Shown: in pieces, positions 7,342-39,262 of the stretch
Layout of the letters: each line of letters opens with the position of its first letter
How positions within the stretch are numbered: position 1 is the first letter of the stretch
Assembly (NCBI GenBank): GCA_007376385.1
Contig: VMGC01000004.1
Coordinates: forward strand, 1-64,000
Direction: 5' to 3'
Length of the DNA stretch: 64,000 bases
Source of the DNA: Parcubacteria group bacterium Gr01-1014_8
Lineage (GTDB): Bacteria; Patescibacteriota; Minisyncoccia; Phycocordibacterales; UBA2100
Notes under the pieces: model-generated
Databases searched by the model: none
Told to the model about the DNA's origin: nothing
Seen by the model: only the letters and a program-made list of their open reading frames with translations
Program-made: the position numbers and the translations under genes

Positions 7342-9039
7342 TTATTCGGTTGCAGGTGCAGGTACGTTTGCTGGTGGCGGCGGAGAAGGTTCCGGTTCGG
7401 GTGGTGGTTCTACCGGCGTCTCTGGAGGTGGAGGTGGGACGTCTACAGGGGCGGGAGGTTCTGTTGCAGGAGCCGTCTCTGGCGTGACTTCTGGCACATC
7501 AGACGGCACCGGCGCGGATCCGTCATGTGCAGCATCCGATTGATCTGATTCTTCGGGGGAAGTCGAATCCGTCGCAGGATCGCTATCCTCCGCTGGTGCG
7601 TCTGGTTCGACTGTAGCGTCCAGCTCCGTCTGCTCGGACGTGTCGGCAGAATCCTCGTCTTCGGGGAGCGTGGAATCCTCATCTCTCGGTACATCGGCAG
7701 TTTCTTCTGGAGACGAATTTTCGGCTGGCTCTGCTGCACCGTTCTCTTCCGTGGCGGATCCCGACGCAGTCGCGGCAGGCGCTGCAGACGCGCTGCCTCC
7801 GCCACTGTTCGTTGGCGGTGCCGCATCAGTCGTTTCAGTCGTCGTTGCTTGTTCCGCTTCACTCTCCTCATCCGCGGCGCCCAATACTTCTGGCTGCGGC
7901 TCGCCGAAGGCTTCGGCGGAGGCGGCTTCTGGTTCCGGGTCAGGAATGTTGGGTGTGCCTGGCGTCGGTATCGGGTCCACCCACGTGCCTGTTCCATCTG
8001 GAATACGCGCGTACGACTTGTTTGGCGCGATCGCAGTCCCTGGGCAACTGCCCGCCGATGGAGTTGATGTTGCGTTTGTGCTTCCAGGTGTCAACTCATT
8101 CTCGCAAAAGTCACTGGGGTTGTCGTACGTGTGCGAGTCGACGAGGACGTTCGTATCGGTATAGAGAAAGATGCTATCACCGGTGTTATTGAGAACTGGC
8201 TTGTTGAAGTACACCACAAGCCATCCGTGTGCAGGGATGGTTGTCGTCGCGGGCTGTGTGTTTGTTGATCCTATAACTGCCTGCGTATTTCCAGCCCCGC
8301 CACTTTCATCCGCAAGATACCAATCGACAATATCTATAGCAACGTCGCCCTTGTTGTACAGTTCAACCCATTCGCCGTCCGGCATGTTTGAAGCATCATT
8401 TCCGAAGTCATATCCGTTCGCAGTATCGTCCGGATTCGGCAGGAATTCGTTCAGCACAATATCAAAGACGCTCGCGGTTGCTTGATAGGTGATGACAAGA
8501 TGCACGCGCTCTTCGTCTGTGTAGCCGGTGTTCTCTGGCGCTCCTTCATACCATCCGCGGTAAATGAGGTCAGCGTTGCAGATATCGCTGTTCGCGAAGC
8601 CCGTCGTCGTTGCAAGCGTGAGTCCGACGTTCCATACGCCCGTCGTTGTGGTTGGGGTCGTGTTAAGAGCTATGAGCCCTCCGGAATAAACAAATGGGGA
8701 AGTTGTCGCAACGACATTAAGTGCATTGCATAGCGCTGTTACTCCGCCTGTTTGTTCTGCAGTCACTCGATACTTTGTGGTGAAGCTCCCGGCTTCCGGC
8801 GTCATGACAGGAATGATGAGGGGAGTCGTTGTCGCTGTTATCGTTCGCGCGTATGTGTCATCTGCGACAAGAAAATCAAGAAGTCCCGCGCCAAAGAAGT
8901 TTCCGATCGAAATTTCTGTATCTCGCAAATATGAAAGCGTCTGTCCAATACCACCGTATGACATTCCGAAAGAAGATGCAAAGAGCATACATGAAAGCGC
9001 AAGAACTGTTGCCTTATGCGCAAAGGATGGCTTCCACAT
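7342..9039 (-). CDS. secreted lamin-tail-domain (LTD) protein with long acidic Pro/Ser/Thr/Glu-rich C-terminal tail
   Basis: Signal peptide MWKPSFAHKATVLALSCMLFASS at the internal Met (start 9039). LTD signature region DGEWVELYNKGDVAIDIVDWYLAD...GWLVVYF. The last ~200 aa are low-complexity (PEPEP, PPPPPETPVEPPPEPEPSPPPP). Confidence 0.7.
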   Translation of the reverse strand: MWKPSFAHKATVLALSCMLFASSFGMSYGGIGQTLSYLRDTEISIGNFFGAGLLDFLVADDTYARTITATTTPLIIPVMTPEAGSFTTKYRVTAEQTGGVTALCNALNVVATTSPFVYSGGLIALNTTPTTTTGVWNVGLTLATTTGFANSDICNADLIYRGWYEGAPENTGYTDEERVHLVITYQATASVFDIVLNEFLPNPDDTANGYDFGNDASNMPDGEWVELYNKGDVAIDIVDWYLADESGGAGNTQAVIGSTNTQPATTTIPAHGWLVVYFNKPVLNNTGDSIFLYTDTNVLVDSHTYDNPSDFCENELTPGSTNATSTPSAGSCPGTAIAPNKSYARIPDGTGTWVDPIPTPGTPNIPDPEPEAASAEAFGEPQPEVLGAADEESEAEQATTTETTDAAPPTNSGGGSASAAPAATASGSATEENGAAEPAENSSPEETADVPRDEDSTLPEDEDSADTSEQTELDATVEPDAPAEDSDPATDSTSPEESDQSDAAHDGSAPVPSDVPEVTPETAPATEPPAPVDVPPPPPETPVEPPPEPEPSPPPPANVPAPATE

Positions 9040-22954: not shown

Positions 22955-23249
22955 TTTTTTTTATAACTTGTCAAAAAGATAAGGAGCTGCACTGTGCTCG
23001 CTTTTCTAACTTCCAGTGAGGTAGGGAATACCTCTGGAGGGGCTCTGCAGCGCGACAGCGCGAAGCCCGAGCAATCTTTTAGCAGAAAGATTGCGTACCC
23101 GGAAGAGGCATTCCCTGTGAGCGACCCCCTTGTGGATAAATGGCTTGCGGTGGTATATAGTGGTGTATATTTACATGCAGTGGGAGAAAGTGGGATGGCG
23201 GGCTGCACGACTCCCGCCATCCTTCCTCCCAAATAAAGAGTAAGAAATT

Positions 23250-23729: not shown

Positions 23730-24770
23730 ATGCGCACGCGACGTTCAGCATCATCCTCCAGCGACCCGGTGCCGTCAAGACGAGGCTCAAATTCCGACAC
23801 ACATGTGTTGGAAGGCAAGTCTCAGCGTCACCACAAGAGTACTTCCATTTTTCTAAGTCCGAGTACGGACAAGAAAAATTGGTCGCACCGAAGCGTTCTT
23901 TTACATGAAAGTATAGCTGCACTCAACGTGAAGCCGTCTCACGTCGTAGTAGACGCGACTCTCGGAGGGGCAGGACACGCAAAAGCGATCGTAGAGAAGC
24001 TGGACGCGAACGGTGTATTCATAGGATTGGATGCGGATGCGGCAGCAGTGGAACGAGCCCGTACGACGCTCTCTGCTGCCGCGTGCCGCATACACATCGC
24101 GACCGCAAATTTTCGTACGCTGGATGAAGTGCTCCATAACTGCGGCGTAACTGGTGTAAACTCGTGCCTTTTTGACCTTGGCTGGAGTGGATATCAGCTC
24201 GCCGCAGGGAGGGGGTTTTCTTTTCTTACAGACGAACCGCTACTCATGACCTACGCCCGCGACATTCTTCCGGACACTCTGACCGCCGAAAAGATAGTCA
24301 ATGACTGGGAGGAGGAGAGCATTGCAGATGTCTTGTACGGATGGGGAGAGGAGCGATATTCAAGGAGAATAGCGAAACGCATCGCCCTGTATCGAAAAAC
24401 CAAGCGGATACAAACGAGTAAGGAGCTTGGCGAGATAATTTCAAGCGCCGTTCCTCTCCACTATCGAAAAGGACGACTGCACCCCGCGACAAAAACGTTC
24501 CAAGCCCTCCGCATCGCGGTCAACGATGAACTCGGCGCCTTGAAGGAAGGATTGCAGGCGGCGTGGAAAACATTGCTGACAGGCGGACGACTCGTAGTCA
24601 TAAGCTTCCACTCGGTCGAAGATAGGGAAGTGAAGCGACTAATGATGGAGTGGTATCGGGCGGGAGAGGCAGAACGCATCACAAAATCTCCGATTCGGCC
24701 GAGCAGGGAAGAAATGACAGAGAATCCACGTTCTCGCAGCGCAAAACTTCGTGTAATTCAGAAAATCTAA
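23730..24770 (+). CDS. rsmH: 16S rRNA (cytosine1402-N4)-methyltransferase RsmH/MraW
   Basis: HRSVLLHESIAALNVKPSHVVVDATLGGAGHAKAI and the C-terminal FHSVEDREVK motifs. The ORF has a ~50-aa atypical N-terminal extension; the true start is unclear (no in-frame ATG near the conserved start). Confidence 0.8.
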   Translation: MRTRRSASSSSDPVPSRRGSNSDTHVLEGKSQRHHKSTSIFLSPSTDKKNWSHRSVLLHESIAALNVKPSHVVVDATLGGAGHAKAIVEKLDANGVFIGLDADAAAVERARTTLSAAACRIHIATANFRTLDEVLHNCGVTGVNSCLFDLGWSGYQLAAGRGFSFLTDEPLLMTYARDILPDTLTAEKIVNDWEEESIADVLYGWGEERYSRRIAKRIALYRKTKRIQTSKELGEIISSAVPLHYRKGRLHPATKTFQALRIAVNDELGALKEGLQAAWKTLLTGGRLVVISFHSVEDREVKRLMMEWYRAGEAERITKSPIRPSREEMTENPRSRSAKLRVIQKI

Positions 24771-24777
24771 ATTTTTC

Positions 24778-25143
24778 ATGACAAATCCAACATTGCCATT
24801 TCGACACAGGCGCATCTCCAAGACGTCTTTTTTTGTTACCGCGCTTCCGCGTGAAGAATCGGCGATCCGCATCCTCTGCGGCATGCTCGGTATTGTCGTA
24901 TTTGCATATATTACGCTCGTAAGCATTTCAATCGTGAACGTTATCGCGAGGAAAGAAGCAATGGACTCTGCAACCGCGCTCCGCGCAGTCGTGGGCCAGC
25001 TTGAGCGCGATTATTTCGCTACTTCCCATGGTGTCACGCTGCAGAGCGGCGATTCACTCGGCCTCTCGCCCGTCTCTGATACAGAGTTTGTCCATCGACC
25101 AGGAGCGGTTGGAACTGCAGGCGCAACACGAAATGAACTCTGA
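24778..25143 (+). CDS. FtsL-like cell division protein (single-TM)
   Basis: Sits between rsmH and ftsI as FtsL does in dcw clusters. One TM segment (ILCGMLGIVVFAYITLVSISIV) followed by a short periplasmic tail. Confidence 0.4.
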   Translation: MTNPTLPFRHRRISKTSFFVTALPREESAIRILCGMLGIVVFAYITLVSISIVNVIARKEAMDSATALRAVVGQLERDYFATSHGVTLQSGDSLGLSPVSDTEFVHRPGAVGTAGATRNEL

Positions 25144-25399
25144 AAAAGAGAAAAAAAGTCCGCTACAATTTCCTGTATGGGCGGACAAAAGGGAAGAGGT
25201 GCTAAAAGTTCAGTTTGTGTCTGGCGGCTCCACGCTGAATTATTTTCTTGTTGTCCGCCAACATGAGTCCAAAAAATCTTAGCGAGCACAGGTGTGTGCT
25301 CTCTGCCGCGTCTCGCAGGCTGACGAGCTGGCGGGCAGCGCTCCGCCAACAGGCAAAGACAGCGACGGCAGAGAGCGCGCACCAAGCGAGCGTCTTCCT

Positions 25400-27121
25400 A
25401 TGAGAGCTAAACTCGTTCTTCGGGTCAGACTGCTCTGTGGGCTTTTCATTCTTACCGCCATCCTGTTGATATTGCGTTTATACATCGTGCAAATAGTTCA
25501 CGGTGAGGAGCATCGAGCGACGGCGGTCAGGCAGTATACGGAATCGGTGGTTGCTAATGAACACAGAGGCGATATCTTTTTTACGCGCAAGGACGGTACG
25601 GAAGTCGCCGCTGCGGTCATGCAGACAGGCTGGCGAGTAGCGATCCAGCCGAAGGAACTAGGAGAAGCTTCCAGTGCATACGAACTCCTCAACGATATAG
25701 TGCCTATCGACAAGGAACGTTTCTTCAAGAGTGCAGAGAAGAGTGACGATCCCTACGAAGAGATAGCCGCTCGCGTCAATGATGAAGCGGCACAATTGAT
25801 ACGAGCAAAGGAAATTCCCGGCGTTATCACCGTTCGTGACGAATGGAGAATGTACCCAGCGCAGGATTTGGCGTCCCACGCAATAGGCTTTGTCGGGTTC
25901 AGCGGGGATGGAACGGGAAAGGCCGGTGTGTACGGACTCGAGCGATACTATGAGGATACTCTGAAGCGAGACGGCTCGAGTTTGTTCGTGAACCCCTTCG
26001 CAGAGATATTCACGAATGTTGCTGCTGTTCTTGCAAGCGACCCGAGTGAATTCGAAGGAAGCATCGTTACTTCCATTGAGCCTGACGTCGAGATAGAACT
26101 CGAGCGCGTACTCGCGGAAATAATGGATGCATATGACCCGCGGTTAGCCGGAGGAGTCATCATGGACCCAAAGACGGGTGCCATTCTGGGTCTTGCGGTA
26201 TTGCCAGATTTTGATCCGAATACATACAATACTGAACATGGTACGTCCGTCTTTGCGAACCCCATTGTAGAGAGCCGGTATGAGATGGGCTCCATCTTGA
26301 AGCCTCTCACGATGGCGGCAGGAATAGATGCAGGCGCTGTGACACCGAGTACAACCTATAACGACAAAGGCTTCATCATGAAAAGCGGTAAAAAGGTGTC
26401 GAACTACGATTTAAAAGGTCGCGGCGTGGTCTCGATGCAGGAAGTCCTTAGCCAATCCTTGAACACGGGCGCCTCGTTCGTCGTCGATAGGATGGGACAG
26501 CAAGAGTTCGCAGACTATTTCCGCAAGTATGGCTTTGGGGAAGAAACAGGCATAGACCTTCCTGGCGAGGTTGCGGGAGATATCTCCGCCATTGATCGCG
26601 GCGGCTCTGATGTTGACTTTGCATCGGCTTCGTTCGGACAGGGAATTGCGATAACGCCCATCGCGATGATACGGGCGCTCGGTGCGCTTGCGAATGCAGG
26701 CGTGTTGCCGGAGCCGCATGTTGCGACGGCCATTCGATATCCGAGCGGGATAAGCCGCGAGCTTTCGCAAATCCCGCCACGCAGCGTGTTAAAGCCAGAA
26801 ACAGCCGAGACGGTGACAAATATGCTTGTAAAAGTCTTTGACGATGCGCTCCTTTCAGGAGAGTTGAAACAGGCGCACTACTCGATCGCGGCGAAGACGG
26901 GAACGGCGCAAATGGCGCGTCCGGAATGCGGCGGATACTGCGAAGGTTTGTTCCTGCATTCATTCTTCGGGTATTTCCCCGCGCACGAACCTCGATTCAT
27001 TATTCTCTTGTATGCACTTGAGCCTCATAAACAGCAATATGCGTCTCAAACGCTTGCCCGCCCATTCATGTCGCTGACGAAGTTTCTTATAAACTATTAT
27101 AATATTCCGCCGGATAGGTGA
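25400..27121 (+). CDS. ftsI: penicillin-binding protein 2 / FtsI-type transpeptidase
   Basis: N-terminal TM anchor; transpeptidase motifs S-x-x-K (GSILKP), S-x-N (VSNYD), K-T-G (KTGTA). The internal Met at 25400 (MRAKLVLR...) is preferred over the ORF start at 25292. Confidence 0.8.
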   Translation: MRAKLVLRVRLLCGLFILTAILLILRLYIVQIVHGEEHRATAVRQYTESVVANEHRGDIFFTRKDGTEVAAAVMQTGWRVAIQPKELGEASSAYELLNDIVPIDKERFFKSAEKSDDPYEEIAARVNDEAAQLIRAKEIPGVITVRDEWRMYPAQDLASHAIGFVGFSGDGTGKAGVYGLERYYEDTLKRDGSSLFVNPFAEIFTNVAAVLASDPSEFEGSIVTSIEPDVEIELERVLAEIMDAYDPRLAGGVIMDPKTGAILGLAVLPDFDPNTYNTEHGTSVFANPIVESRYEMGSILKPLTMAAGIDAGAVTPSTTYNDKGFIMKSGKKVSNYDLKGRGVVSMQEVLSQSLNTGASFVVDRMGQQEFADYFRKYGFGEETGIDLPGEVAGDISAIDRGGSDVDFASASFGQGIAITPIAMIRALGALANAGVLPEPHVATAIRYPSGISRELSQIPPRSVLKPETAETVTNMLVKVFDDALLSGELKQAHYSIAAKTGTAQMARPECGGYCEGLFLHSFFGYFPAHEPRFIILLYALEPHKQQYASQTLARPFMSLTKFLINYYNIPPDR

Positions 27122-27195
27122 CCTGCACCTTTCTACGCAGGAACACTGCGTCTACGCCAGGGATGGCGGTTTCGAAATGATAAAGTTACCTCAAT

Positions 27196-28527
27196 ATGCG
27201 GGAATTATTTAAAATTATTCTCATTCAAGTGCTTACGCTCGAAGCGCGGATGATACTGTGGAAATATGATCCAAAGGTGATCGCCGTTACCGGGAGCATG
27301 GGAAAGACAACGACGAAGGACGCTATCTTTGCCGCGCTCCATGGACATGTGTCGATCAGAAAAAGCGAAAAGAGCTACAACAGCGAGATAGGCGTGCCGC
27401 TTGCTATCATCGGCTGCGAAAGCGCCTGGGGAAATGTGGTGGGATGGTTGCGGAATATCGCGCACGGTTTGCGGCTGCTTATTCTCAAGGAGGAGTACCC
27501 AGGCTGGCTTGTGGTCGAAGTCGGTGCGGATAGACCCGGCGATATACGGCGTATTGCCGTGTGGCTCCATCCTGACGTTGCAGTCATAACCGCAATTCCT
27601 GCTGTTCCGCCGCATGTGGAGTTCTTCACGTCAACGGACCACATTGCTCGCGAAAAACGTTCGCTCATTAACCACATGAAGCATGAGGGCCTGCCTGCGC
27701 CGGGCTCGTCGCGGCAGGCAGGCCGTGTCATCGTGAACGGCGATGATGAACGCACGCTAGCGATACAGCGCGACTATCGCGGTATTTCGCATACCTTCGG
27801 ATTCGGCGAGCACAATGAACTGAAAGCATCACACGATGAGATCACCTATGAAGGCGGGCATCCGGTTGGCGTGCAGTATCGAATAAATGTCGACGGCGCA
27901 TCAATTCCCGTTTTCATGCGCGGGGCGCTAGGAAAGCCTCGTATCTACGCTGGTCTTGCGGCGCTTGCGGTTGCCAAAGTCGTGGGGCTTGACCTCATAT
28001 CGGCTGCATCATCTCTTGCCGCATGGGACCCTCCGCCTGGCCGCATGCGTATACTCCCCGGGAAACATGGCTCTATTATTCTCGATGACACCTATAATTC
28101 ATCGCCGGACGCGGTTGTGGCTGCACTCGAAACCCTAAAATCTGTCGCACATGCAAAAAAACGGATAGCAGTTCTCGGAGATATGCTCGAACTTGGACGG
28201 TTTTCGACGGAGGCGCATCGCAGAATAGGCGAACTCGTTCCCAAATATGCTGGCGAGCTCATCACAATAGGCTTTCGCGCAAAGATGATGGCCAGTTCTG
28301 CGATGGAAAAGAAGATGAAAGGCGAAAAGATACAGAGTTATGATCAGGGCGAGTGTGAAAAGGTTGGGACAGAACTTGCTGCGCGTCTGAAGCCTGGCTA
28401 CATAGTCCTCGTAAAAGGCTCGCAGGCGATGCGAACGGAGAGGGTCGTCAAGGAACTTTTGGCAGATTCATTGCAACCGTCTGAAGTATTGGTTCGGCAG
28501 GATGCCGAATGGATGAAAGACCAATAA
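27196..28527 (+). CDS. murF: UDP-N-acetylmuramoyl-tripeptide--D-Ala-D-Ala ligase (MurF), N-terminally short form
   Basis: Mur ligase P-loop VIAVTGSMGKTTTKD (MurF-type) plus Mur ligase middle and C-terminal regions. Only ~35 aa precede the P-loop, so the usual N-terminal domain is absent. Confidence 0.75.
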   Translation: MRELFKIILIQVLTLEARMILWKYDPKVIAVTGSMGKTTTKDAIFAALHGHVSIRKSEKSYNSEIGVPLAIIGCESAWGNVVGWLRNIAHGLRLLILKEEYPGWLVVEVGADRPGDIRRIAVWLHPDVAVITAIPAVPPHVEFFTSTDHIAREKRSLINHMKHEGLPAPGSSRQAGRVIVNGDDERTLAIQRDYRGISHTFGFGEHNELKASHDEITYEGGHPVGVQYRINVDGASIPVFMRGALGKPRIYAGLAALAVAKVVGLDLISAASSLAAWDPPPGRMRILPGKHGSIILDDTYNSSPDAVVAALETLKSVAHAKKRIAVLGDMLELGRFSTEAHRRIGELVPKYAGELITIGFRAKMMASSAMEKKMKGEKIQSYDQGECEKVGTELAARLKPGYIVLVKGSQAMRTERVVKELLADSLQPSEVLVRQDAEWMKDQ

Positions 28528-28528
28528 T

Positions 28529-29221
28529 ATGGAATATCTCGCAGTCACAGTGCTCATAGGATCCATTTGGTCACTTTTATACTATGCGAGGCCGGACCTT
28601 AGAAAAATGCAGCTCTGGAGCAGCTGGTATTTCACGACTGTTATGACCATCGGTTTCGTGGCGTTAAAAGTAACGCTCGACCTTCCAGTAGAACAATCGA
28701 TAAACCCAGGATATTGGCATCCCAATACGCTCTTTAATTTGAATGCCCTGACAGGCGGTTACGCCATCGAAGATGCGTTCTTTATATTTTTTATGGGCGG
28801 GGTAGGTGCAGTAGTATACGAAGAGTTGTTTAGAAAACATGTTGCCCGCATACATGCGAAGCATAGACCGCATTTTGCAGTGAAAATAGGTGTTGCTGCC
28901 GCAGCATTAGTTGCCCTGTTACACGTTAATCTTATCTACGCGTTGATAGCGTTCGGGTTTGCGGGCGCATTCGTCATCTGGTGGCAAAGACATGACCTTA
29001 TCCGCCATTCGCTCGTAGGAGGCGCAGCTTTTTTAAGTATCTATGCGGTCTCATATTGGCTGGTTCTTTTCATGTTTCCGGAATTCGTGGCGCATCACTA
29101 TAATTTTTCTAACGTGTCTGGTTTGACCTTTGTGCAGTTGCCCATTGAAGAGTATCTGTTTGCGTTCAGTTTCGGACTCATGTGGTCGCCCTTATACGAA
29201 TATATGAGGGATGTGAGATGA
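28529..29221 (+). CDS. polytopic membrane protein, lycopene-cyclase-domain-like
   Basis: Six or more TM helices; the IEDAFFIFFMGGVGAVVYEE motif resembles the conserved PxEE/acidic box of CrtYcd-type lycopene cyclase domains. Low confidence. Confidence 0.4.
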   Translation: MEYLAVTVLIGSIWSLLYYARPDLRKMQLWSSWYFTTVMTIGFVALKVTLDLPVEQSINPGYWHPNTLFNLNALTGGYAIEDAFFIFFMGGVGAVVYEELFRKHVARIHAKHRPHFAVKIGVAAAALVALLHVNLIYALIAFGFAGAFVIWWQRHDLIRHSLVGGAAFLSIYAVSYWLVLFMFPEFVAHHYNFSNVSGLTFVQLPIEEYLFAFSFGLMWSPLYEYMRDVR

Positions 29222-29240
29222 TATTATTTGGAGAACGCAT

Positions 29241-30374
29241 ATGAGAATTCTTATCGTCGGAGCAGGAATTTCAGGTCTCGCTTTTGCGTCGTTCATCAAA
29301 CGCGACGGTACCGTGATTGACATTGTCGATAAAGCGCCGGCGTGGCCGAATCGCGGTTTTTCTATAGGTTTTTGGAGCAATGCAAGGGCTGTTCTGCAAA
29401 AATTAGGGCTTGGAGAGAAATTTGATGAACATGCGGTGCCATTCCATCGGCTCATCATTCGCAACGGCGACGGCAAACTTCTGCGTCAATTCAATTTGCA
29501 CAAATTTAATACGGAGGTTGGTCTCGCTCTCGTTGATTTAAAACGCTCTCTTCTCCATGATTGGCTGTACGAGACGGCGGGTAAACCTGCAGTTCGGCTG
29601 GGAAAGAGCCTGCTTACTCTGCGCGAAGAGGGGAACAAGGTACATGTGGTATTCAGCGATGGAGAACAGCAAAATTATGACCTTGTCGTTGGAGCGGACG
29701 GAATTCACTCTCAAGTGCGCACGTTATCTCTGAATTTTCACGAGAGATACAAAAATTGGCGCGCGTGGTGGATGTGGGTTAACGGTTCTTTTGGCGAATC
29801 CCGCACACTTAGTTCTTACGTGGAGCCAGGCGTCATTATAAATTTCTTCAATGAAGGTGAACGTACTCTCGTTAATCTTGCTGCGCATGCGAATCATGCT
29901 GTATGGGATACAGAGGCAGGGAGAATGGAGAGGCTGACACGGTTGTTTAAGAGCGAATCATCCCTGGTTCCTTTGCTTTTCGAAGGCCACAAAGATGTAG
30001 ACGCAATGCCAACTGACTTGGTGCGCATAAAACTGAAACATTGGCACACAAATCGCATCGTTCTTATCGGGGATGCGGCTCACGGGTTTGAACCATCGGC
30101 AGGCCTCGGGGGCTCAATGGCGCTTGAAGATGCATATGTACTTGCTGCCGAACTGCTTAAAGTCGAGGAAGAACATATCACTGCCGCACTCGAAGCATAC
30201 GAGAAGAAGAGAAAACCGCGTGTCGCGCTCGCGCGCAGTCTGACATCGAAAATGGGATCGTGGGGAATGGTTGACTCTGTCCTTCTTCGAAAATCGATCG
30301 ATCTCATCTTTCCGTACTTGCCGGAGAGCATGCTCACTAGGGATTTTTTCAAATTATTGAAGGAAGAAATTTAG
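29241..30374 (+). CDS. FAD-dependent monooxygenase / oxidoreductase (PF01494-like)
   Basis: N-terminal dinucleotide fold ILIVGAGISGLAFA, DLVVGADGIHSQVR (DG-x-x-S-x-x-R) and the LIGDAAHGFEPSAGLGGSMALEDA (GDAAH) motif. Confidence 0.7.
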   Translation: MRILIVGAGISGLAFASFIKRDGTVIDIVDKAPAWPNRGFSIGFWSNARAVLQKLGLGEKFDEHAVPFHRLIIRNGDGKLLRQFNLHKFNTEVGLALVDLKRSLLHDWLYETAGKPAVRLGKSLLTLREEGNKVHVVFSDGEQQNYDLVVGADGIHSQVRTLSLNFHERYKNWRAWWMWVNGSFGESRTLSSYVEPGVIINFFNEGERTLVNLAAHANHAVWDTEAGRMERLTRLFKSESSLVPLLFEGHKDVDAMPTDLVRIKLKHWHTNRIVLIGDAAHGFEPSAGLGGSMALEDAYVLAAELLKVEEEHITAALEAYEKKRKPRVALARSLTSKMGSWGMVDSVLLRKSIDLIFPYLPESMLTRDFFKLLKEEI

Positions 30375-30708
30375 CGCTGAGACTGATGGTCAGCGATGCA
30401 ACTATAAAAAAAGTGCCTGCAACTTGTACGAATTTTGTCGAAAGACGCTTGTGCGTGAGCTTGTACGTGTAATAGGTCGTGAAATTGTATTGATATCGAA
30501 GTTTGGGATTTAGCATTCTGCGAAGCGAGAACTCCCAGCGGCTCAGAATACAATAGCCGAGTATCAAATTCTGAAAAAGAACGTAGACGAGGAGTCCAAT
30601 ATAGATGGGCCAAATCGAGGGCCACAGCCATCCGAAGAAGATGATAACCCCCACAACGCAGTGTACGAGGAAGATACTGACAGCGCCTATGTGTTCTACA
30701 ATTCTCAC
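30349..30708 (-). CDS. hypothetical membrane protein (119 aa)
   Basis: Three predicted TM helices; ORF only. Confidence 0.35.
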   Translation of the reverse strand: MRIVEHIGAVSIFLVHCVVGVIIFFGWLWPSIWPIYIGLLVYVLFQNLILGYCILSRWEFSLRRMLNPKLRYQYNFTTYYTYKLTHKRLSTKFVQVAGTFFIVASLTISLSAKFLPSII

Positions 30709-30982
30709 AGGGGAATTGTAACCTATGATGATACCGCTATCGGTTTTATGTCTTTTCTAAGTTCTGCTCTCACCACAAAGTCGAGGACGTCCAGATCTCC
30801 CCAGTTCACTTTTAATACCTGAAATTCCGATACTTTGTGTTCAATTCCATTCGAGTCAAACTCTACGTCAGGGCTAAGGATGGACGGTAAGCCCTGTTCT
30901 TTCCGGCGCTCCTCAAATTGTTCAAGTTTACCCCGGTTAAGCAGTGCAGGATCCTGCGTTGCGCCGCCTCGTATGACGACTT

Positions 30983-31600
30983 TTACAATGAGAAAAGAGG
31001 GGAGTTCTCCTCGTTTTGTGTATGCTCGCTTTCTCTATGCGCTTTCCATTCGTCCAGATATTCATCAAATACCTTCTTGTGAGCGGTCGACACAAACTCG
31101 TAACCATTTTTGTGCGCGAATTGGATCACACTTGGCCGAGAGGACGAAAATTCAATGACAGTGGGCGTACGCGGGTCGTGTATGCACAAAGCGGCAATAA
31201 AGTCCTCCGCAGTCCGCAACGCGTAGGAGCCTATGCCTTGACCGCGAATGCTCTCATTGCTGCCCCTCTTCTTCTCCCTTACAAAACTGTGTTCTCTCCT
31301 CCATATTCTGCCCGAGCGCTGGTCGGGACCGGCGATAAACTGGAATGCCGCGATATTTTGTTTCTCATGGTCAAGCAAAACAGTTATTTCCGAGGGCTCC
31401 TTGCTATGCATGTAGCTGTACATCCAGGTACATGTCACCGTCTGCTTAGGAAATCCAGGCGCATCAATTCTCTTATCGATAGATACAAGACCAAATTTCT
31501 TTCTGTTTGCTTGCGCCATTAGTTGCAAGAATTCCCCATGAGAGAGGCTCGCGGATAGCTCAGGCGGATGTTCAGGAAGGATACCTCGCGGCTCGCTCAT
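30983..31600 (-). CDS. GNAT-like acetyltransferase domain protein
   Basis: IRGQGIGSYALRTAEDFIAA resembles GNAT motif A (Q/R-x-x-G-x-G/A). Low confidence on function. Confidence 0.4.
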   Translation of the reverse strand: MSEPRGILPEHPPELSASLSHGEFLQLMAQANRKKFGLVSIDKRIDAPGFPKQTVTCTWMYSYMHSKEPSEITVLLDHEKQNIAAFQFIAGPDQRSGRIWRREHSFVREKKRGSNESIRGQGIGSYALRTAEDFIAALCIHDPRTPTVIEFSSSRPSVIQFAHKNGYEFVSTAHKKVFDEYLDEWKAHRESEHTQNEENSPLFSL

Positions 31601-31898
31601 GACAAAAGTCTACCATTTGGAACATTACACGTGGGACTTAGTTTATTGGTTGAAATCGAAAATCAATGACCCTACGGGGACCGCGAGTACACTATCGGTC
31701 ACAAGTAATTTGCTTCGCAAACTCTCGCGACTCCGACTTGGCGGCCCAAAGGGTCCCCGCCTCCGTCTTTCGATTCCCGCTCGGGGCCCGACTAACGCCT
31801 AAAAACCCGACGGCATGCGGCGCGTGCGCTGTCAGTCAGGATTCTGGCTGAAATGAGTTCGAGCAATGTCGTACAGAGTCAAGAGTTTAGAACTTAAA

Positions 31899-31997
31899 TC
31901 GAAATCCCCGTGGGATTCTTTGTTGGCGGGCAAAGAAAACCACGGGGATTTCGGGGTGCCGCACGCCAAGCGCGCGTCCAAATGCAGGTTCGAGCCG
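31899..31997. repeat. inverted repeat, left copy (IR-L)
   Basis: See the mobile-element call. Also forms a local hairpin cgaaatccccgtgg...ccacggggatttcg. Confidence 0.55.
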
Positions 31998-32099
31998 AAG
32001 ATTTTTTGGAGGGGAATGCAAATGCAAAATCCACTAAGGAGTGCATTGCCCCGCCCGCCCTTGCGCGCACAGGATTATTCTTCGCTTTGCGAAGCTCCC

Positions 32100-32810
32100 T
32101 TAAACTCCCAAATCCTTTTTCTTTTCTTCAAATTCGCTCTTATCAATTTCGCCTTTGGCGTATCGCTCCTTCAATATATCGAATGCTGATTTTCCTTGCA
32201 CATCATTACCGTGACTGTGCCCTCCCATATGACCTGCTCCAAAATTCCCCCTTATCATGGAGACAATCATCCAGATTACGAAACCCCAAAAGAGAACCAT
32301 AAAGATCCAGCCAAACCCACCAAAAGGCATTAATCCAAAATTCATCATAGAATTATTTGATTGATTAGTATTAAGAGGAGACGACCATCCTCCCCACATC
32401 ATGTTCATCATCGGCATCCAGCCGCCGCTGATTGCGGGGAACGCCGCCGAGGTGTCGCAACCGGAAAGCCGTTTACCCATGACAATATGGATCTGCTCCT
32501 CACCATCCGCGCCGTGCGCTTGAATCATCATGGCGTTCATGGCGGCGTGAGAATCACCAGCCATTTGACCCATAAAGTATTCACCAAGCACTCCATACTG
32601 CTCATTGTTTAGATCAGCACAGGCGACCTCTTTTGCTTGCAGCTTACTCCGTAGCTCTTTTCCTTCCTGCTCTTCACGGGCAGTGTGCTCGACGACGGCG
32701 TTCCAATCCGCAGCAGAATTGGAAAACCCACCCATCATTTGAGCATGTGCACTTTGAGCAAACGAACCGACGACAACTATAGAAAGAAAAGTTAAAATGA
32801 GTTTTTTCAT
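32100..32810 (-). CDS. secreted/membrane Met- and His-rich protein with C-terminal SHOCT domain
   Basis: Signal peptide MKKLILTFLSIVVVGSFAQSAHA. Met-rich tracts (MMNMMWGGW, MPMMNMM) and HMGGHSHG. Two TM helices, then SAFDILKERYAKGEIDKSEFEEKKKDL, a typical SHOCT motif. Confidence 0.55.
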   Translation of the reverse strand: MKKLILTFLSIVVVGSFAQSAHAQMMGGFSNSAADWNAVVEHTAREEQEGKELRSKLQAKEVACADLNNEQYGVLGEYFMGQMAGDSHAAMNAMMIQAHGADGEEQIHIVMGKRLSGCDTSAAFPAISGGWMPMMNMMWGGWSSPLNTNQSNNSMMNFGLMPFGGFGWIFMVLFWGFVIWMIVSMIRGNFGAGHMGGHSHGNDVQGKSAFDILKERYAKGEIDKSEFEEKKKDLGV

Positions 32811-32822
32811 AGTTTTTTTAAT

Positions 32823-33170
32823 TTAACCAAATACTAACACCTTGTCCGAACTCTCGACCATATTGAGTAAGTCGGACATGGTGGAAATAGGACACATGGC
32901 GGTCTCTTTTTTGCCGCGAATTTCCAAGCAAGTACCGCATGCAAAGATTGTTCCTTTCAGTTCTTTATATTCTGCAATTCTCTTTGAAATATCAAAATGT
33001 TCGCCATCAGGAATAGAATCCAATTCCGAACCCTCATTCATCAAGAAAATCTCAACGTGGTGATTAGCTTTGAGTGCGGCGATACCGAGGCGGAACGTGT
33101 TCCATACGTGTTCGGGTTTATTGGATTGTAGGATGATGCCGAGCTTCATAGAGAGTATCTTCGTATCCAT
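32823..33170 (-). CDS. DsrE/DsrF-like family protein
   Basis: 115 aa with KLGIILQSNKPEHVWNTFRLGIAALKANHHVEIFLMNEG and a conserved Cys (FACGTC), consistent with the DsrE/DsrF/YchN-like fold. Confidence 0.5.
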   Translation of the reverse strand: MDTKILSMKLGIILQSNKPEHVWNTFRLGIAALKANHHVEIFLMNEGSELDSIPDGEHFDISKRIAEYKELKGTIFACGTCLEIRGKKETAMCPISTMSDLLNMVESSDKVLVFG

Positions 33171-33186
33171 TGATATAATACTTCAT

Positions 33187-34740
33187 ATGCGCTATTTCCT
33201 CTACGCCCGCAAAAGTACGGATGTCGAAGACAAACAGGTGATGTCCATCGAAGGACAGCTCGTTGAACTGCGGGCATTGGCTAAACGTGATGGATTAGAA
33301 ATTGCAGAAGAATTCATTGAAAAGCGAAGCGCGAAGATTCCAGGCCGCCCTGTATTTGAGGACATGTTAAAGCGGATCGAGAAAGACGAAGCGCACGGAA
33401 TTATCTGCTGGAAAATTGATCGTCTTTCACGCAATCCGGTTGATAGCGGGAGAATTAGTTGGCTACTTCAACAGAACATAATCCAGAAGATCGTAACGCA
33501 TGACAAGATATATCTTCCTCACGACAACGTACTCCTCATGTCTGTGGAATTCGGCATGGCGAATCAGTACATCCGAGACTTGAGTGTCAACGTGAAGCGC
33601 GGCCTCCGGCAAAAGGCACGACAAGGCGTATATCCAAGTACCGCGCCCTTGGGCTACCGCAACGACCCGTACACCAAGACCATCGTCGTGGATCGGCGCA
33701 AAGCGCCGCTCGTGCGTAAGGCATTTGAACTCTACGCAAAGAACGGCTCGCGGCTCGAAGACATTGCGCAGTTTCTTTTCGAGCACGGCATCAAGACGGG
33801 AGCGACGCGCGGATGGAGCAAGGGCGGCGGCAGGCCGCTCAAAAAAGACCAGATAACATTCCTGCTCTCTAATCCGTTTTACTTCGGCCACTTCGCCTAC
33901 AGCGGCGAGATGTACGAGGGCACGCATACGCCCATCGTGAGCAAGGAGCTTTTTGACGCGGTGCAAAAAGTCCTCGCGCTTCGCAGTCGTGCGCACCACA
34001 AAGTGGCGAACGAGCCGCAAGCGTATTGCGGCCTTTTGCATTGTGGCGAGTGCGGCTTTTCCATCACCGCCGAGGAGAAATCGAAGCGACAGAAGAACGG
34101 CAACGTACATCGCTACATTTACTATCGCTGTACGAAAAAGAAAGCCGCCGTTCATTGCTCACAGCCGTATGTGCGGGAAGAAGCGCTCGACTCGCAACTC
34201 TCCGGCTTGCTCGCAAAGTTTGTCATGCCCGCGCATTGGGCGAAGGAATTAGACGCAATGGCCGAGCGAGATGCGGCAAGCGCCTCTCAAACCACGGCGG
34301 CGTCCGTCCAAGCGATGCGGGCAAAGATTGCCGAGTTAGACGGCAAAATCGCCCGCATCACCGACCTCTTTGTCGAACAGGATATCGAGCGCGGCGACTA
34401 TCTCGAAAGGAAGCGCGCACTTATGTCCGAAAAGAAGTCGGTGCAGGAGCGAATCCTCCTGCTTGAACGGGACGCCGCCGTGTGGCTCGAACCGATGCAG
34501 AAGTGGATACAAGAGGCGCAAATGCTTGAAGAAATTGCGAAATCCAAAGACTACCCCTCCAAAAAATCCTCCCTCCAAAAAATCTTCGGCTCGAACCTCA
34601 CTCTCCACGCGCGCGAAGCGCGCGGCGTGCCGCAAAATCAGTGGTTTTCTTTGCTCACTGCCAAAGAAAACCACTCCGAAAATAACCTCGTTCCGATACT
34701 TGTGACCTCACGGGGAATCGAACCCCGGTTCCATCCTTGA
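33187..34740 (+). CDS. large serine recombinase (resolvase/invertase-type catalytic domain plus recombinase and zinc-ribbon domains)
   Basis: MRYFLYARKSTDVEDKQVMSIEGQ (catalytic Ser region), GIICWKIDRLSRN, recombinase-domain motifs, the CGLLHCGECG zinc ribbon and a C-terminal coiled coil. The 3' end is encoded by IR-R and runs into the antisense of tRNA-Glu. Confidence 0.8.
   Translation: MRYFLYARKSTDVEDKQVMSIEGQLVELRALAKRDGLEIAEEFIEKRSAKIPGRPVFEDMLKRIEKDEAHGIICWKIDRLSRNPVDSGRISWLLQQNIIQKIVTHDKIYLPHDNVLLMSVEFGMANQYIRDLSVNVKRGLRQKARQGVYPSTAPLGYRNDPYTKTIVVDRRKAPLVRKAFELYAKNGSRLEDIAQFLFEHGIKTGATRGWSKGGGRPLKKDQITFLLSNPFYFGHFAYSGEMYEGTHTPIVSKELFDAVQKVLALRSRAHHKVANEPQAYCGLLHCGECGFSITAEEKSKRQKNGNVHRYIYYRCTKKKAAVHCSQPYVREEALDSQLSGLLAKFVMPAHWAKELDAMAERDAASASQTTAASVQAMRAKIAELDGKIARITDLFVEQDIERGDYLERKRALMSEKKSVQERILLLERDAAVWLEPMQKWIQEAQMLEEIAKSKDYPSKKSSLQKIFGSNLTLHAREARGVPQNQWFSLLTAKENHSENNLVPILVTSRGIEPRFHP
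34571..34685. repeat. inverted repeat, right copy (IR-R), inside the recombinase 3' coding region
   Basis: See the mobile-element call. Local hairpin agtggttttctttg...caaagaaaaccact. Confidence 0.55.
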
Positions 34741-34774
34741 GAAGGATGTGTCCTAGCCGCTAGACGATGAGGCC
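34703..34774 (-). tRNA. tRNA-Glu (anticodon CUC), 72 nt, no encoded CCA
   Basis: The reverse complement folds as acceptor GGCCTCA/TGAGGTC, D-arm GTCT-AGCGGCTA-GGAC, anticodon stem CATCC/GGATG with loop TTCTCAA (anticodon CTC), 4-nt variable loop, T-arm CGGGG-TTCGATT-CCCCG, discriminator A. Confidence 0.8.
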
Positions 34775-34944
34775 GTCACGGCGAGTATAGAATATACTTG
34801 GTTCGATTCCAAGGGACTTACAGCTTCAAACATCATACGGGGAATCGGTCACGCATAATTTTCGAGTGAAAATTTGCGCGACCCCACCTCACTCGCCCTC
34901 GCTCGTTCCGGTCTTGCGGCGCTACGCTCACTCGCGCCTCACCC

Positions 34945-35010
34945 CGCTCCATCCTTGAGATACTGGTATAAAGATGTGAATCAGTTTGTCCTAGCCGATA
35001 GCCTGCCCGG
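34945..35010 (-). pseudogene. degenerate tRNA-Glu-derived fragment (D-arm and anticodon-arm region with two insertions)
   Basis: ccatccttgaga and gatgtg...gtcctagccgatag match the tRNA-Glu gene at 34729-34765 but are interrupted by 11-nt and 9-nt insertions; no acceptor or T arm. Confidence 0.35.
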
Positions 35011-35101
35011 CCAGGGACGATAGGGCGTTCGAATGTCAAAAATAGCGATTTCGGCAACGACAAGCATGAGATGTTTCTCATTAACGTGCTACAGTTTTTG
35101 T

Positions 35102-35773
35102 ATGACGGATGACCGTAGCGGCTCCAGGCTCGACCAGATGACGAGAGCGCAACAGATAACTGCACTTTTTCCGAAGCTTACAGCGCTGGATGGGCAGTAC
35201 ACTGCGCTCTGGGATGAGATGCAGGGACTTTTTCTCGAGAAAAAGATAGGCGGCGCGTTTGCTCCCATTATCGAGCATCGCAGGCGGCAGTTGAAGACTC
35301 CTCGAAAAATGATACGGGAAAATATTCTTGGCGCTCGCACGACTCTCTTAAGCGGCGGCACGGCACCGCTTGCCCCGCTCTATCTTTCGGACCTGCAGCA
35401 CCGATTTGCAGGGATTGAAAGTATGATCCAGCGCGCACGTACGATCGCGCGGGACCTAACAGAACTTCTTGGTCTCGTGCGAAGTCAGGGTGACATCGGG
35501 CAGCTTATGCGGCATGCGGAGGCTTTTTGGACGGAGCATCAGCGCGCACAAGAGCATTTACTCGAAGACATACCGCATCGTGACACTATTTCGAGTGTTG
35601 TTGTTCTTGAACAGCGATTGAGGCACGCCACAAGAGAAATCCCGCTTGTTCGCTCATTTGCAGGAAGCGGGGCGCCGCGTGCCGAGATAGAAGCTGAAGT
35701 TACCAAGCTCACTAAAGCGATAGACTACACCGGCCGCCGGATACAGCGAGTAAAAAAAGAATTGGGATACTGA
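35102..35773 (+). CDS. hypothetical protein (223 aa from the internal Met)
   Basis: ORF 35033..35773. The first 23 codons look non-protein-like, so the Met at 35102 is preferred. Confidence 0.35.
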   Translation: MTDDRSGSRLDQMTRAQQITALFPKLTALDGQYTALWDEMQGLFLEKKIGGAFAPIIEHRRRQLKTPRKMIRENILGARTTLLSGGTAPLAPLYLSDLQHRFAGIESMIQRARTIARDLTELLGLVRSQGDIGQLMRHAEAFWTEHQRAQEHLLEDIPHRDTISSVVVLEQRLRHATREIPLVRSFAGSGAPRAEIEAEVTKLTKAIDYTGRRIQRVKKELGY

Positions 35774-35820
35774 CGTGTTTAAAAGTCGAGAATATAAGCG
35801 CCTCTCGCTCGGGCGGCCCG

Positions 35821-36993
35821 TCATTCTTCGGATTGTTTTCCCAATCGTTTTCCTGTCCTTTCGCGATTAACTGTTCTGCTATGGATCTTTTCATACGCGA
35901 GCCAAGCTTCCTCCAGGTCGTGCGAAGTAGCTGCAAGTTTAAAAGAGATGGGACGTCCCTGCTCGTCGGTCATTTCATTGAATGCCCGTATGACTTCCGT
36001 ATAGCCGCTAACATCTTTGCGATCACGCGGGTTCTCGTGCCAATGAGCTGCAAATATATCCGAATAGAATCGATTCTGCAGGTCGTGTATCTCATGCCAA
36101 TTGCTTTCCGGTTTATACGTAAAGCCGACATCAAGCATGGAAGCGGTGTAGTCTATTGGACTTTTTGATCCCTTGAGCAGAGAAATATCGGTTGCGCCCT
36201 GTGTTGACAGGCCTTTTGCGGAATCAAACCCAAGATCATGCCCCATTTGAAGAGCCAAAAAAAGCAGTAGCCGCTGGGGCGATACTTTGTACTTGTCTAA
36301 AAAATCATCGCGGATAGTTTTCAGCTCCTTCAGCCGCTCTTCTTTGCCATGACTCTTGTGACCGCTGCCGGTGCGGACTATCCGGAAGACGCGCTCGCCG
36401 GATGGTGTGATTTCCATATCAACGCCAACGCGCCACATCTCTCCGTGGGTGCTCTGGCTGACATTTCGCGGGTCATATCCGATGGCAAGATCGATGGAAA
36501 ATGTTCCTGACCCGCTTTGACCTTTTACAGAAAAATAGTACCCAGGCAGCGAAAGCTGGTTCTTTAATATGCGTCCACGCCATGATGGCTCATCACTCGT
36601 TGCGAACATGTCTTTTCCAAAAAGACCGGACCAAAAATTATAGTTCGCCTTCATGTTCGAGAACATCCTTTCAACAGGTGTGTCCTGGTCAGCCAGATAA
36701 ACCAAATTCCCCCGTCCGAAAAAATTATCCGGCAATTTGTCTTTTAGCCACGCGGCAAACGTCAATGCCTCCTCGAGGTCAGCACGTTTATTAGCCCAAC
36801 CGGCTCTGTTCATGAATAGGTTCAGACCATTCGCAGTAGCAGAATCAATATTTTGTCGTTCGCAGAATGTGCGAATGACGCGCCATCTTTCCTGCGGCGA
36901 TACATCCTGATCCCGCGACTGGAGCTCCGTACTCACGAACGTCCGTACTTGGAGAAGGGTAGCCTCCAATTGCCGTTGTTCCTCAAAAACCAT
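35821..36993 (-). CDS. hypothetical protein (390 aa)
   Basis: Long ORF with no recognized motif. Confidence 0.4.
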   Translation of the reverse strand: MVFEEQRQLEATLLQVRTFVSTELQSRDQDVSPQERWRVIRTFCERQNIDSATANGLNLFMNRAGWANKRADLEEALTFAAWLKDKLPDNFFGRGNLVYLADQDTPVERMFSNMKANYNFWSGLFGKDMFATSDEPSWRGRILKNQLSLPGYYFSVKGQSGSGTFSIDLAIGYDPRNVSQSTHGEMWRVGVDMEITPSGERVFRIVRTGSGHKSHGKEERLKELKTIRDDFLDKYKVSPQRLLLFLALQMGHDLGFDSAKGLSTQGATDISLLKGSKSPIDYTASMLDVGFTYKPESNWHEIHDLQNRFYSDIFAAHWHENPRDRKDVSGYTEVIRAFNEMTDEQGRPISFKLAATSHDLEEAWLAYEKIHSRTVNRERTGKRLGKQSEE

Positions 36994-37043
36994 ATGAAAA
37001 GTCTAGCAGGAAAAGAAGGCGCGAACCATGATACTCTGAGCGA

Positions 37044-39262
<2,219 letters not shown>

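Follow-up and report, generated by a model that had tools for sequence, protein, structure and literature searches.

A large serine recombinase gene that ends inside a tRNA-Glu gene of a Parcubacteria genome: a probable attR junction of a small integrative element

We analysed a stretch of 64,000 nucleotides from contig VMGC01000004.1 of Parcubacteria group bacterium Gr01-1014_8 (below, the window), in which the gene of a large serine recombinase (LSR) runs at its 3' end into the 3' end of a tRNA-Glu(CUC) gene on the opposite strand. We estimate a probability of roughly 80% that this overlap is the right junction (attR, composed of a P arm and a B' half-site) of a small integrative element whose attachment site attP would lie in the last ~13 codons of the LSR gene, and that the tRNA-like debris found nearby is separate from the element and older. 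Throughout, a slash marks a junction between two sequences, so that attR is P/B'. The features that meet at the overlap are as follows.

33187 to 34740, plus strand: LSR gene, 517 amino acids (aa), with the Pfam domains Resolvase, Recombinase and Zn_ribbon_recom; 100% identity to database protein P0001.
34554 to 34702, plus strand: P arm, the 3' end of the LSR coding sequence and at the same time a cis-acting region; inverted repeat I1.
34703 to 34706, plus strand: shared core TGAC, the putative attR crossover, from comparison of the junctions at sites D and C (defined below).
34702 to 34774, minus strand: tRNA-Glu(CUC), an intact host gene, called by ARAGORN and by Rfam RF00005 with 58.1 bits.

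The open reading frame (ORF) of the LSR extends from 33070 to 34740 on the plus strand and holds the resolvase, recombinase and zinc ribbon domains (PF00239, E 1.6e-20; PF07508, E 1e-16; PF13408, E 5e-10). Its true start is likely the ATG at 33187, in agreement with the annotation of P0001, a protein of the same bacterium that is identical to the 517-aa LSR. The catalytic domain has the motif YARKSTD, with R8, K9, S10 and T11 near-invariant in 38 homologues, and the recombinase domain (PF07508) is followed by the zinc ribbon (PF13408). All domains are those of serine recombinases, and none is that of a tyrosine recombinase. The nearest solved structures are those of SPbeta SprA (9dxh, E 1.6e-11) and the A118 integrase (4kis). 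Residues 8 to 421 align to SprA and the A118 recombinase domain also aligns; past residue ~421, beyond the region that can be aligned to solved LSRs, the protein has a family-specific C-terminal extension of ~95 aa.

ARAGORN calls only one tRNA in the whole window, the tRNA-Glu(CUC) at 34702–34774 on the minus strand. The RF00005 match covers 34703–34774 (58.1 bits, E 2.3e-11; gathering score 29), and no second significant Rfam match is found nearby. The gene has what is expected of a bacterial tRNA, a cloverleaf above the gathering threshold and a recognizable anticodon, and it does not encode CCA. The first-pass annotation of the window had described a clean tRNA-Glu on the minus strand that shares 38 nucleotides (nt) with the recombinase end, and it was right on both counts: the ARAGORN call and the Rfam score agree, and the overlap at the tRNA 3' end, 34703–34740, is 38 nt long. 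The final 13 codons of the LSR, VTSRGIEPRFHP followed by a stop, are an antisense reading of the tRNA. On the tRNA strand, a promoter-like pair (–35 TTGGAA, a spacing of 17, –10 TATACT; 34784–34812, minus strand) ends 9 nt 5' of the tRNA, the right position for a tRNA-Glu promoter, with the –35 element falling within a T-arm-like hairpin described below.

A fusion of this kind recurs throughout the LSR family. From thousands of homologues we compared the C-termini of the top 120 (62–90% identity), all 120 of which come from the candidate phyla radiation (CPR, or Patescibacteria). The majority of these C-termini are antisense tRNA T-arms, for example LVT/SRGIEPRF, LVP/GVGLEPT and LVD/PRGIEPRPRPCHGRVIPLNYGP, and the tRNAs differ. 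Eleven of the 120, scattered through all sublineages, end in a native tail, ...LV(T)/LY.AARTYF.. and a stop; the protein database is clustered at 90% identity, which makes this count blind to orientation isomers from the same population. A survey of loci with one genome per GTDB species returned at least 589 relatives, from which 80 loci were studied, 69 of them with a complete 3' end. An opposite-strand ARAGORN tRNA lies exactly at the LSR junction in 53 of the 69, and in ~9 further loci the LSR adjoins a tRNA 3' half. The targets represent 13 tRNA identities (Thr, Leu, Gln, Glu, Asn, Arg, Tyr, Ala, Val, Ser, Gly, Ile and Lys).

The point at which the shared sequence switches to tRNA or to the alternative P' arm is fixed to the base in at least 44 loci and coincides with the complement of the discriminator, plus that of CCA in genes that encode it. 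In the tRNA, the motif YGAAC follows 15 nt past the junction, compared to 19 nt in P', and this 4-nt offset holds in 42 of 44 loci. The P' consensus is nnCTATAC-N8-9-GCTCGAACCTATTTT, in which GCTCGAACCTATTTT is the YGAAC mimic. By analogy with known serine integrases, the offset would correspond to the difference in half-site spacing between attB and attP that sets directionality. For the A118/LI integrase, Rutherford and Van Duyne are said to have described half-site motifs whose spacing differs between attP and attB.

Some loci hold more than one such gene. At L084 (10001–13402) two LSR genes converge on divergent tRNA-Glu(UUC) and tRNA-Ser(CGA) genes, each reading antisense into its own tRNA, and several metagenome-assembled genomes (MAGs) carry more than one member of the family, each at a different tRNA (for example L001/L003, L011/L032 and L009/L041). 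LSRs with only 24–39% identity to the window's LSR also end at the 3' end of tRNA-Glu(CUC) (L092, L138, L089, L120, L202, L116, L146, L186, L188, L190 and L197), so that tRNA-end targeting seems to reach well beyond this subfamily.

Comparison of empty and occupied loci yields the attachment (att) sites themselves. A metagenome scan with the 27-mer of the tRNA-Glu(CUC) anticodon arm gave 120 loci, 103 of them with sufficient 3' flank; a metagenome scan with the window-specific hairpin sequence gave no match. About one sixth of the 103 loci are occupied by an LSR that ends at the tRNA. Those of the window's own family are L117, L134 and the fragment L173, the others being only 24–39% identical, and many of the remaining loci have a terminator hairpin directly 3' of the tRNA. 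The informative pair is L181 and L134, whose flanks are 83–90% identical. The distance from PfkB to tRNA-Glu is 170 nt in L181, which has no LSR, versus 5.5 kb in L134, and homology between the two restarts exactly at the tRNA 3' end. The attP sequence is given by L001, where the LSR gene is 91% identical to that of the window, has the native tail, and continues as an ORF across the P/P' junction.

attB, empty site, L181: AAAATTTTTT / GAC / CTCACGGGG.
attL, occupied site, L134: AAAATTTT / GAC / TCTATACAACTCTGCTCGAACCTATTTT (right half also given as TCTATACAACTCTGCTCGAACC).
attR, occupied site, L134: GATACTGGT / GAC / CTCACGGGG.
attP, native-tail LSR 3' end, L001: GATACTTGT / GAC / TCTATACAACTCTGCTCGAACCTATTTT (right half also given as TCTATACAACTCTGCTCGAACC).

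As expected for a serine integrase, attL and attR are hybrids of attP and attB around the core GAC, and five further loci have cores of 3–6 nt. A GAC crossover at the acceptor end places attP within the last ~13 codons of the integrase, and from this we infer that the acceptor and T-arm of the tRNA form the B' half of the attachment site. The attP is thus located inside the integrase ORF, as in SSV-type integration, and the native-tail and tRNA-tail forms part at one codon position. The TGAC core of the window is the complement of the final acceptor-stem bases plus the discriminator. Several loci hold partial versions of these sites: a solo P-arm scar beside tRNA-Glu with no LSR within 14 kb (L173, 14131–14300), an LSR N-terminal stub fused to the end of a P arm (L106, 2248–2406), and, in L134 (10206–10360), ~70 nt of P' fused to the distal inverted P arm, the remainder of site C having been deleted together with the cargo module.

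The comparisons show that the LSR gene in the unintegrated or alternative state ends in the native tail, and that recombination with a tRNA gene swaps this tail for one encoded antisense to the tRNA, in the window SRGIEPRFHP and a stop. The exchange falls in 3–6 shared bases that are complementary to the end of the acceptor, the discriminator and, in genes that encode it, CCA, and tRNA positions 1–73 thereby remain host-derived and intact. In the mechanism that we propose, the enzyme would read the universally conserved acceptor/T-arm as its B' half-site, and the P arm would replace the tRNA 3' flank and bring with it a hairpin and U-tract terminator. In most elements a second, inverted attP copy (site C) lies between the cargo module and the LSR module. 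A wider proposal can be put forward only tentatively, and we hold it to be less probable than its negation: a very large CPR/Patescibacteria clade may use the acceptor/T-arm of any tRNA as attB, keep attP in its own coding end, consist of two modules with two inverted attP copies, and integrate in either orientation or flip, toggling between a native and a tRNA-encoded C-terminus.

If the LSR is taken to be on the plus strand, many loci have three sites with a common core of 3–6 nt: site A is X/P', site C is P/P' on the opposite strand and upstream, and site D is P/tRNA. Complete sets of A, C and D occur in at least 11 related loci; an inverted P arm is found upstream of the LSR in ~55 related loci, and at least 11 also have the A site. 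The arms in L007 measure 241 nt (100% identical) and 125 nt (98%) and are joined at TGGTGA, a build that is shared by L009, L036, L042 and L076. X in both L007 and L009 is the intrinsic terminator of the tRNA, displaced by 5.4 kb. In minimal elements such as L007 only ~290 nt separate site C from the LSR. The window has its own copy of the inverted site.

31640 to 32020, minus strand: site C, an inverted attP-like copy (P arm 31882–32020, core TGAC 31878–31881, stop 31832–31834).

This copy is a pseudo LSR 3' end that encodes PLQKIFGSNLHLDARLACGTPKSPWFSLPANKESHGDFDLSSKLLT/LYDIARTHFSQNPD and a stop, its P' arm bearing the native tail LYDIARTHFSQNPD and the stop; its P arm resembles another sublineage (P0028). 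L082 and L001 show the other orientation, in which a native-tail LSR is followed by P' and then cargo, with inverted P and P' arms at the contig ends. This arrangement would fit a circle that carries attP twice, in inverted orientation, and would also fit an LSR module that has flipped. Many short-read contigs end 100–140 nt into the P' arm, as is expected for a repeat longer than k, and contig breaks at inverted arms are uninformative on real inversion. The cargo between the P' arms of the native-tail element in L082 includes, with a type III restriction-modification (R-M) system, genes for tRNA-Phe and tRNA-Arg (7547–7694).

The P arm appears to be constrained as DNA in addition to being coding sequence. 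Two features within it are listed here.

34589 to 34598, plus strand: GCTCGAACCT motif in the P arm, enriched in the window.
34641 to 34674, minus strand: 14-bp palindrome/hairpin, then UGAUUUUG on the tRNA strand; 28 nt past the tRNA 3' end.

Identity at third codon positions across 65 LSR genes is ~0.33–0.45 over most of the gene, 0.67 in codons 451–465 and 0.57 in codons 466–480. This peak is the start of the inverted arm and holds the third copy of GCTCGAACCT, translated GSNL, the maximum coinciding with this distal copy. The motif is a T-arm mimic with a copy in the P' arm (read as ARTYF) in addition to the distal P-arm copy, and the tRNA itself has TCGAACC. It is also present at 31986–31995, in site C of the window. 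Most site C copies have a 10-nt insertion, consensus TTYGKATTTT, inside the distal motif; that of the window is without it. Just 5' of the conserved P-arm motif, a tandem duplication of CCCTCCAAAAAATC (34554–34585) codes for PSKKSSLQK. The 82-nt stretch that contains the palindrome (34620–34701) has a predicted fold of –29.5 kcal/mol (z = –3.2), and the hairpin with its U-tract may be a replacement terminator that the element supplies to tRNA-Glu.

On the 5' side of the tRNA lie tRNA-like fragments, which the first-pass annotation took as a record of repeated integration and excision at a tRNA hotspot. A repeat that we call R1 is interspersed with them.

34797 to 34813, minus strand: T-arm-like hairpin cttggttcgattccaag, overlapping the –35/–10-like pair (34784 to 34813).
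34847 to 34946, minus strand: R1 repeat, ~95 nt, 72 bits with a covariance model (CM); between the pseudo-tRNA body and a T-arm remnant at 34843–34853.
34941 to 35003, minus strand: pseudo-tRNA-Glu with two insertions of ~10 nt; extends from the D-arm as far as the beginning of the T-stem.
31697 to 31800, minus strand: diverged R1 copy inside the site C P' arm; CM 33 bits, E 1.2e-7.
23012 to 23095, plus strand: R1 copy found by the covariance model.

The fragments themselves are statistically real, as had been claimed. Local alignment of the tRNA to 34775–35300 gives a score of 34 at 34941–35001, with two ~10-nt gaps, compared to a mean of 16.4 (sd 2.3) and a maximum of 27 for 234 other 526-nt chunks of the window. 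The T-arm-like hairpin that had been reported at 34797–34813 is found there, and the 11-nt ACGGGGAATCG at 34843–34853 is a same-strand match to the T-arm/acceptor of the tRNA; the top opposite-strand match is the 11-mer GGAATCGAACC. If pseudo-tRNA and hairpin were scars of recombinase elements that came and went at this tRNA, the family would offer some precedent. In L024 (4300–4530) and L048 (11480–11664) the LSR adjoins a tRNA 3' fragment with the intact tRNA ~100 nt beyond, and in L081 (11440–11680) the LSR ends in P/P' (25 nt) that is fused at TCGAAC to a pseudo-tRNA-Leu, followed by an intact tRNA-Leu; moreover, the R1 that interrupts the pseudo-tRNA is also found inside P' arms (L030, L038 and the window). 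The hypothesis may thus be right elsewhere in the family; in this window we regard it as unlikely. The LSR recombines at the tRNA 3' end, so that the element is on the 3' side and the debris on the 5' side, and the pieces, which are split by R1, have neither arm sequence (P or P') nor an att core at their borders. Furthermore, the relative L091, which is syntenic (tRNA-Glu, PfkB, AhcY, hydrolase) and has no LSR at its tRNA, carries upstream of its tRNA-Glu the T-arm-like hairpin and a second tRNA-Glu-like copy with ~88-nt insertions, as in the window, whose 9–11-nt insertions match the positions of the full insertions in L091. Since L091 shares both the debris and the R1 interruption, these are probably not the product of integration and excision cycles. 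The debris is also absent beside L083 and L134, the closest relatives of the element. We conclude that 34797–35010 is most plausibly an old, decayed tRNA-Glu paralogue, split by R1 and inherited from before the LSR insertion. What stands of the first-pass interpretation is that the overlap marks site-specific integration at the tRNA, given the family-wide pattern and the att set from relatives; the proposed comparison with the tRNA-Glu loci of relatives favours integration through the L181/L134 pair and disfavours the debris as its record through L091.

R1 contains a conserved hairpin of 15 bp, preceded by a smaller stem, with compensatory changes in 15 of 22 predicted pairs, and its G-U pairs point to the strand of the tRNA (minus in the window). 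The covariance model finds it in about a dozen related loci, including L038, L034, L030, L083, L044, L049, L035, L019 and L065; it occurs in the tRNA-Glu pseudogene (twice in L091) as well as in the P' arms noted above, and Rfam has no match for it. Between L034 and the window R1 is precisely present versus absent, as for a mobile insertion. We considered whether the pseudo-tRNA could be a tRNA with several introns, but manual removal of R1 in L091 restores neither the D-stem nor the anticodon stem, and the copy is therefore a pseudogene. The T-arm-like hairpin was also tried as an inverted P'/B' site and rejected, as the order of GTATAG and GGTTCGA mismatches P' either way.

Two other explanations concern the junction itself. 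The LSR and its inverted repeats could be a resident DNA-inversion switch, of the Hin/Gin type or like the phase variation of shufflons, that flips the LSR/cargo module or the tRNA block. Both modules are indeed bounded by inverted arms that end at the core with 85–100% identity, both orientations of the LSR module are found in nature (the L007 type and the L082/L001 type), and the block of tRNA-Glu and LSR is inverted relative to the flanks FtsI...PfkB-AhcY between the window and L134/L083/L181. An inversion switch nevertheless seems improbable, because the family resides at 13 kinds of tRNA, where neither flanks nor cargo are related, the empty/occupied pair and the displaced tRNA terminators indicate insertion and not inversion alone, ~90% of the copies share one orientation, and recombination of attP with attR or attL is not a reaction of canonical LSRs. 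The element may be able to invert in addition to integrating, in which case inversion would not be a competing explanation. It could also be argued that the overlap is a trivial run-on, an LSR gene that happens to sit beside a tRNA and is read until a stop codon turns up by chance; in favour of this, the tail taken from the tRNA varies and probably has little importance for the protein, and its stop is set by the tRNA sequence. This explanation is hardly credible. The switch point is base-exact in at least 44 loci, 53 of 69 loci have the same geometry and the att set is consistent, which together effectively refute it.

Several observations weigh against the integration of an element at the tRNA, or limit how far this interpretation can be taken. 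The evidence for an element is comparative throughout. The attL junction (X/P') is absent from the 64-kb window as judged by BLAST with the P' arm and by the motif GCTCGAACYT, so that the left limit of the element is undefined and the copy may be old or immobile; of the two junctions, the window has only attR at 34703–34706, together with the inverted attP-like copy. The P arms of the window, that of the LSR and that of site C, are 76% identical, versus 85–100% at most loci. The crossover dinucleotide can be placed only to somewhere in the 3–6-nt core, and inspection of the P and X half-sites gave no convincing motif symmetric to P'/B'. A simple consensus scan gave no indication of a terminator role for the hairpin at 34641–34674, and no candidate was identified for a recombination directionality factor (RDF), on which excision by serine integrases depends. 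The isomers are ~90% tRNA-fused, which misfits equal use of both attP copies and argues against their free and symmetric use. As to what site C does, we can only guess that it serves integration of the circle through either site, flipping of the LSR module, or as an operator of the LSR promoter.

The remaining content of the element in the window is a small cargo on the opposite strand.

32100 to 33170, minus strand: cargo of the LSR module, a SHOCT-domain membrane protein (32100–32810) and a DsrE-like protein (32823–33170), from Pfam.

DsrE is located directly upstream of a 90%-identical LSR in L083 too. Cargo at related loci includes type III R-M systems (L001, L082), GmrSD with an EcoRI-type methylase, AbiEii, DUF3800, a VirD4-like coupling protein, secreted M23/CBM96 proteins and giant surface proteins. 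A search of IMG/VR found no relative, which makes the elements small non-viral islands; where a prophage would have virion, packaging or lysis genes, their cargo is R-M, Abi, DUF3800, surface proteins and DsrE. The only other hits of the attL searches, at 28185 and 53470, were taken as chance, as they are within unrelated ORFs and without CTATAC context. A direct repeat of the tRNA 3' half, as in an island of the tyrosine-integrase type, was sought to the left of the LSR and none was found. On a larger scale, comparison of 23730–39262 in the window with L134, L083 and L181 shows that the block of LSR element plus tRNA-Glu is inverted relative to its conserved FtsI...PfkB-AhcY-ATP synthase flanks, an inversion that separates the lineage of the window and L091 from that of L134, L083 and L181. 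A similar flip of the tRNA-Glu segment is seen in L009 and L007 versus many empty loci.

The LSR belongs to the same class, with the same domain order (resolvase, recombinase, zinc ribbon), as the integrases of phiC31, Bxb1, A118/LI and SPbeta (SprA), and it shares with phage and integrative and conjugative element (ICE) LSRs a short core and a half-site motif that is spaced differently in attP and attB. It differs from these in using tRNA 3' ends of many identities instead of one protein-coding or intergenic site, and in having attP in the integrase ORF, the C-terminal extension of ~95 aa, a second inverted attP and no phage context. Integrases of the SSV1 type, from archaeal fuselloviruses, are tyrosine recombinases with attP in the integrase gene and a tRNA target, and integration alters their ORF. 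These traits are common to both systems, but the SSV1-type gene is split into two large parts, whereas the serine LSR described here gives up no more than its last ~13 codons and remains a full-length protein, and its hosts are bacterial (CPR). Hin/Gin invertases and the FLP/FRT system of the yeast 2-micron plasmid have segments bounded by inverted recombinase sites and two orientation isomers, both of which are also found here. Hin/Gin enzymes, however, are ~190 aa long with a C-terminal helix-turn-helix and an enhancer, in contrast to a 517-aa LSR at varied tRNAs.

P4/Islander islands and tycheposons are likewise small cargo islands at tRNA genes, with a tRNA-proximal integrase and defence or accessory cargo. 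In tyrosine-integrase islands the 3' part of the tRNA is duplicated as a direct repeat; exchange at the discriminator/CCA duplicates no tRNA segment, and there is no tRNA duplication here. The present elements are further set apart by a single enzyme family that uses at least 13 tRNA identities and by the inverted attP. Among tycheposons, 27 of 937 bear an LSR (10.1101/2020.12.28.424599). Mageeney et al. (2020) state that use of tRNA or tmRNA genes by serine integrases had not previously been reported, and list 14 candidate cases among 297, for which proof is needed (PMC7192596). Our search of the literature, which is incomplete in coverage, found no description of this LSR family, which is apparently widespread in CPR bacteria and undescribed. 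Judged by its sequences, it appears to be novel with respect to known serine-integrase islands in its targeting of tRNA 3' ends, its attP in the integrase gene and its inverted second attP.

Serine integrases are workhorses of large-cargo genome engineering and are regarded as not using tRNA genes. This family appears to use them routinely, at 13 or more identities in hundreds of CPR genomes, and the T-arm/acceptor end that it reads is the most conserved nucleic-acid sequence in biology. If confirmed, these integrases would have a ready landing site in almost any genome. The inverted attP and the DNA constraint on the coding end pose the question of how directionality and expression are controlled without an obvious RDF. 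For annotation, the variable C-termini and the many contig breaks nearby are consequences of the att architecture. If confirmed, the family would also be a bacterial counterpart, built on a serine recombinase, of the archaeal integrases whose gene contains attP, and would account for the mobility of small islands with defence and accessory genes in CPR bacteria, where recognized mobile elements are few.

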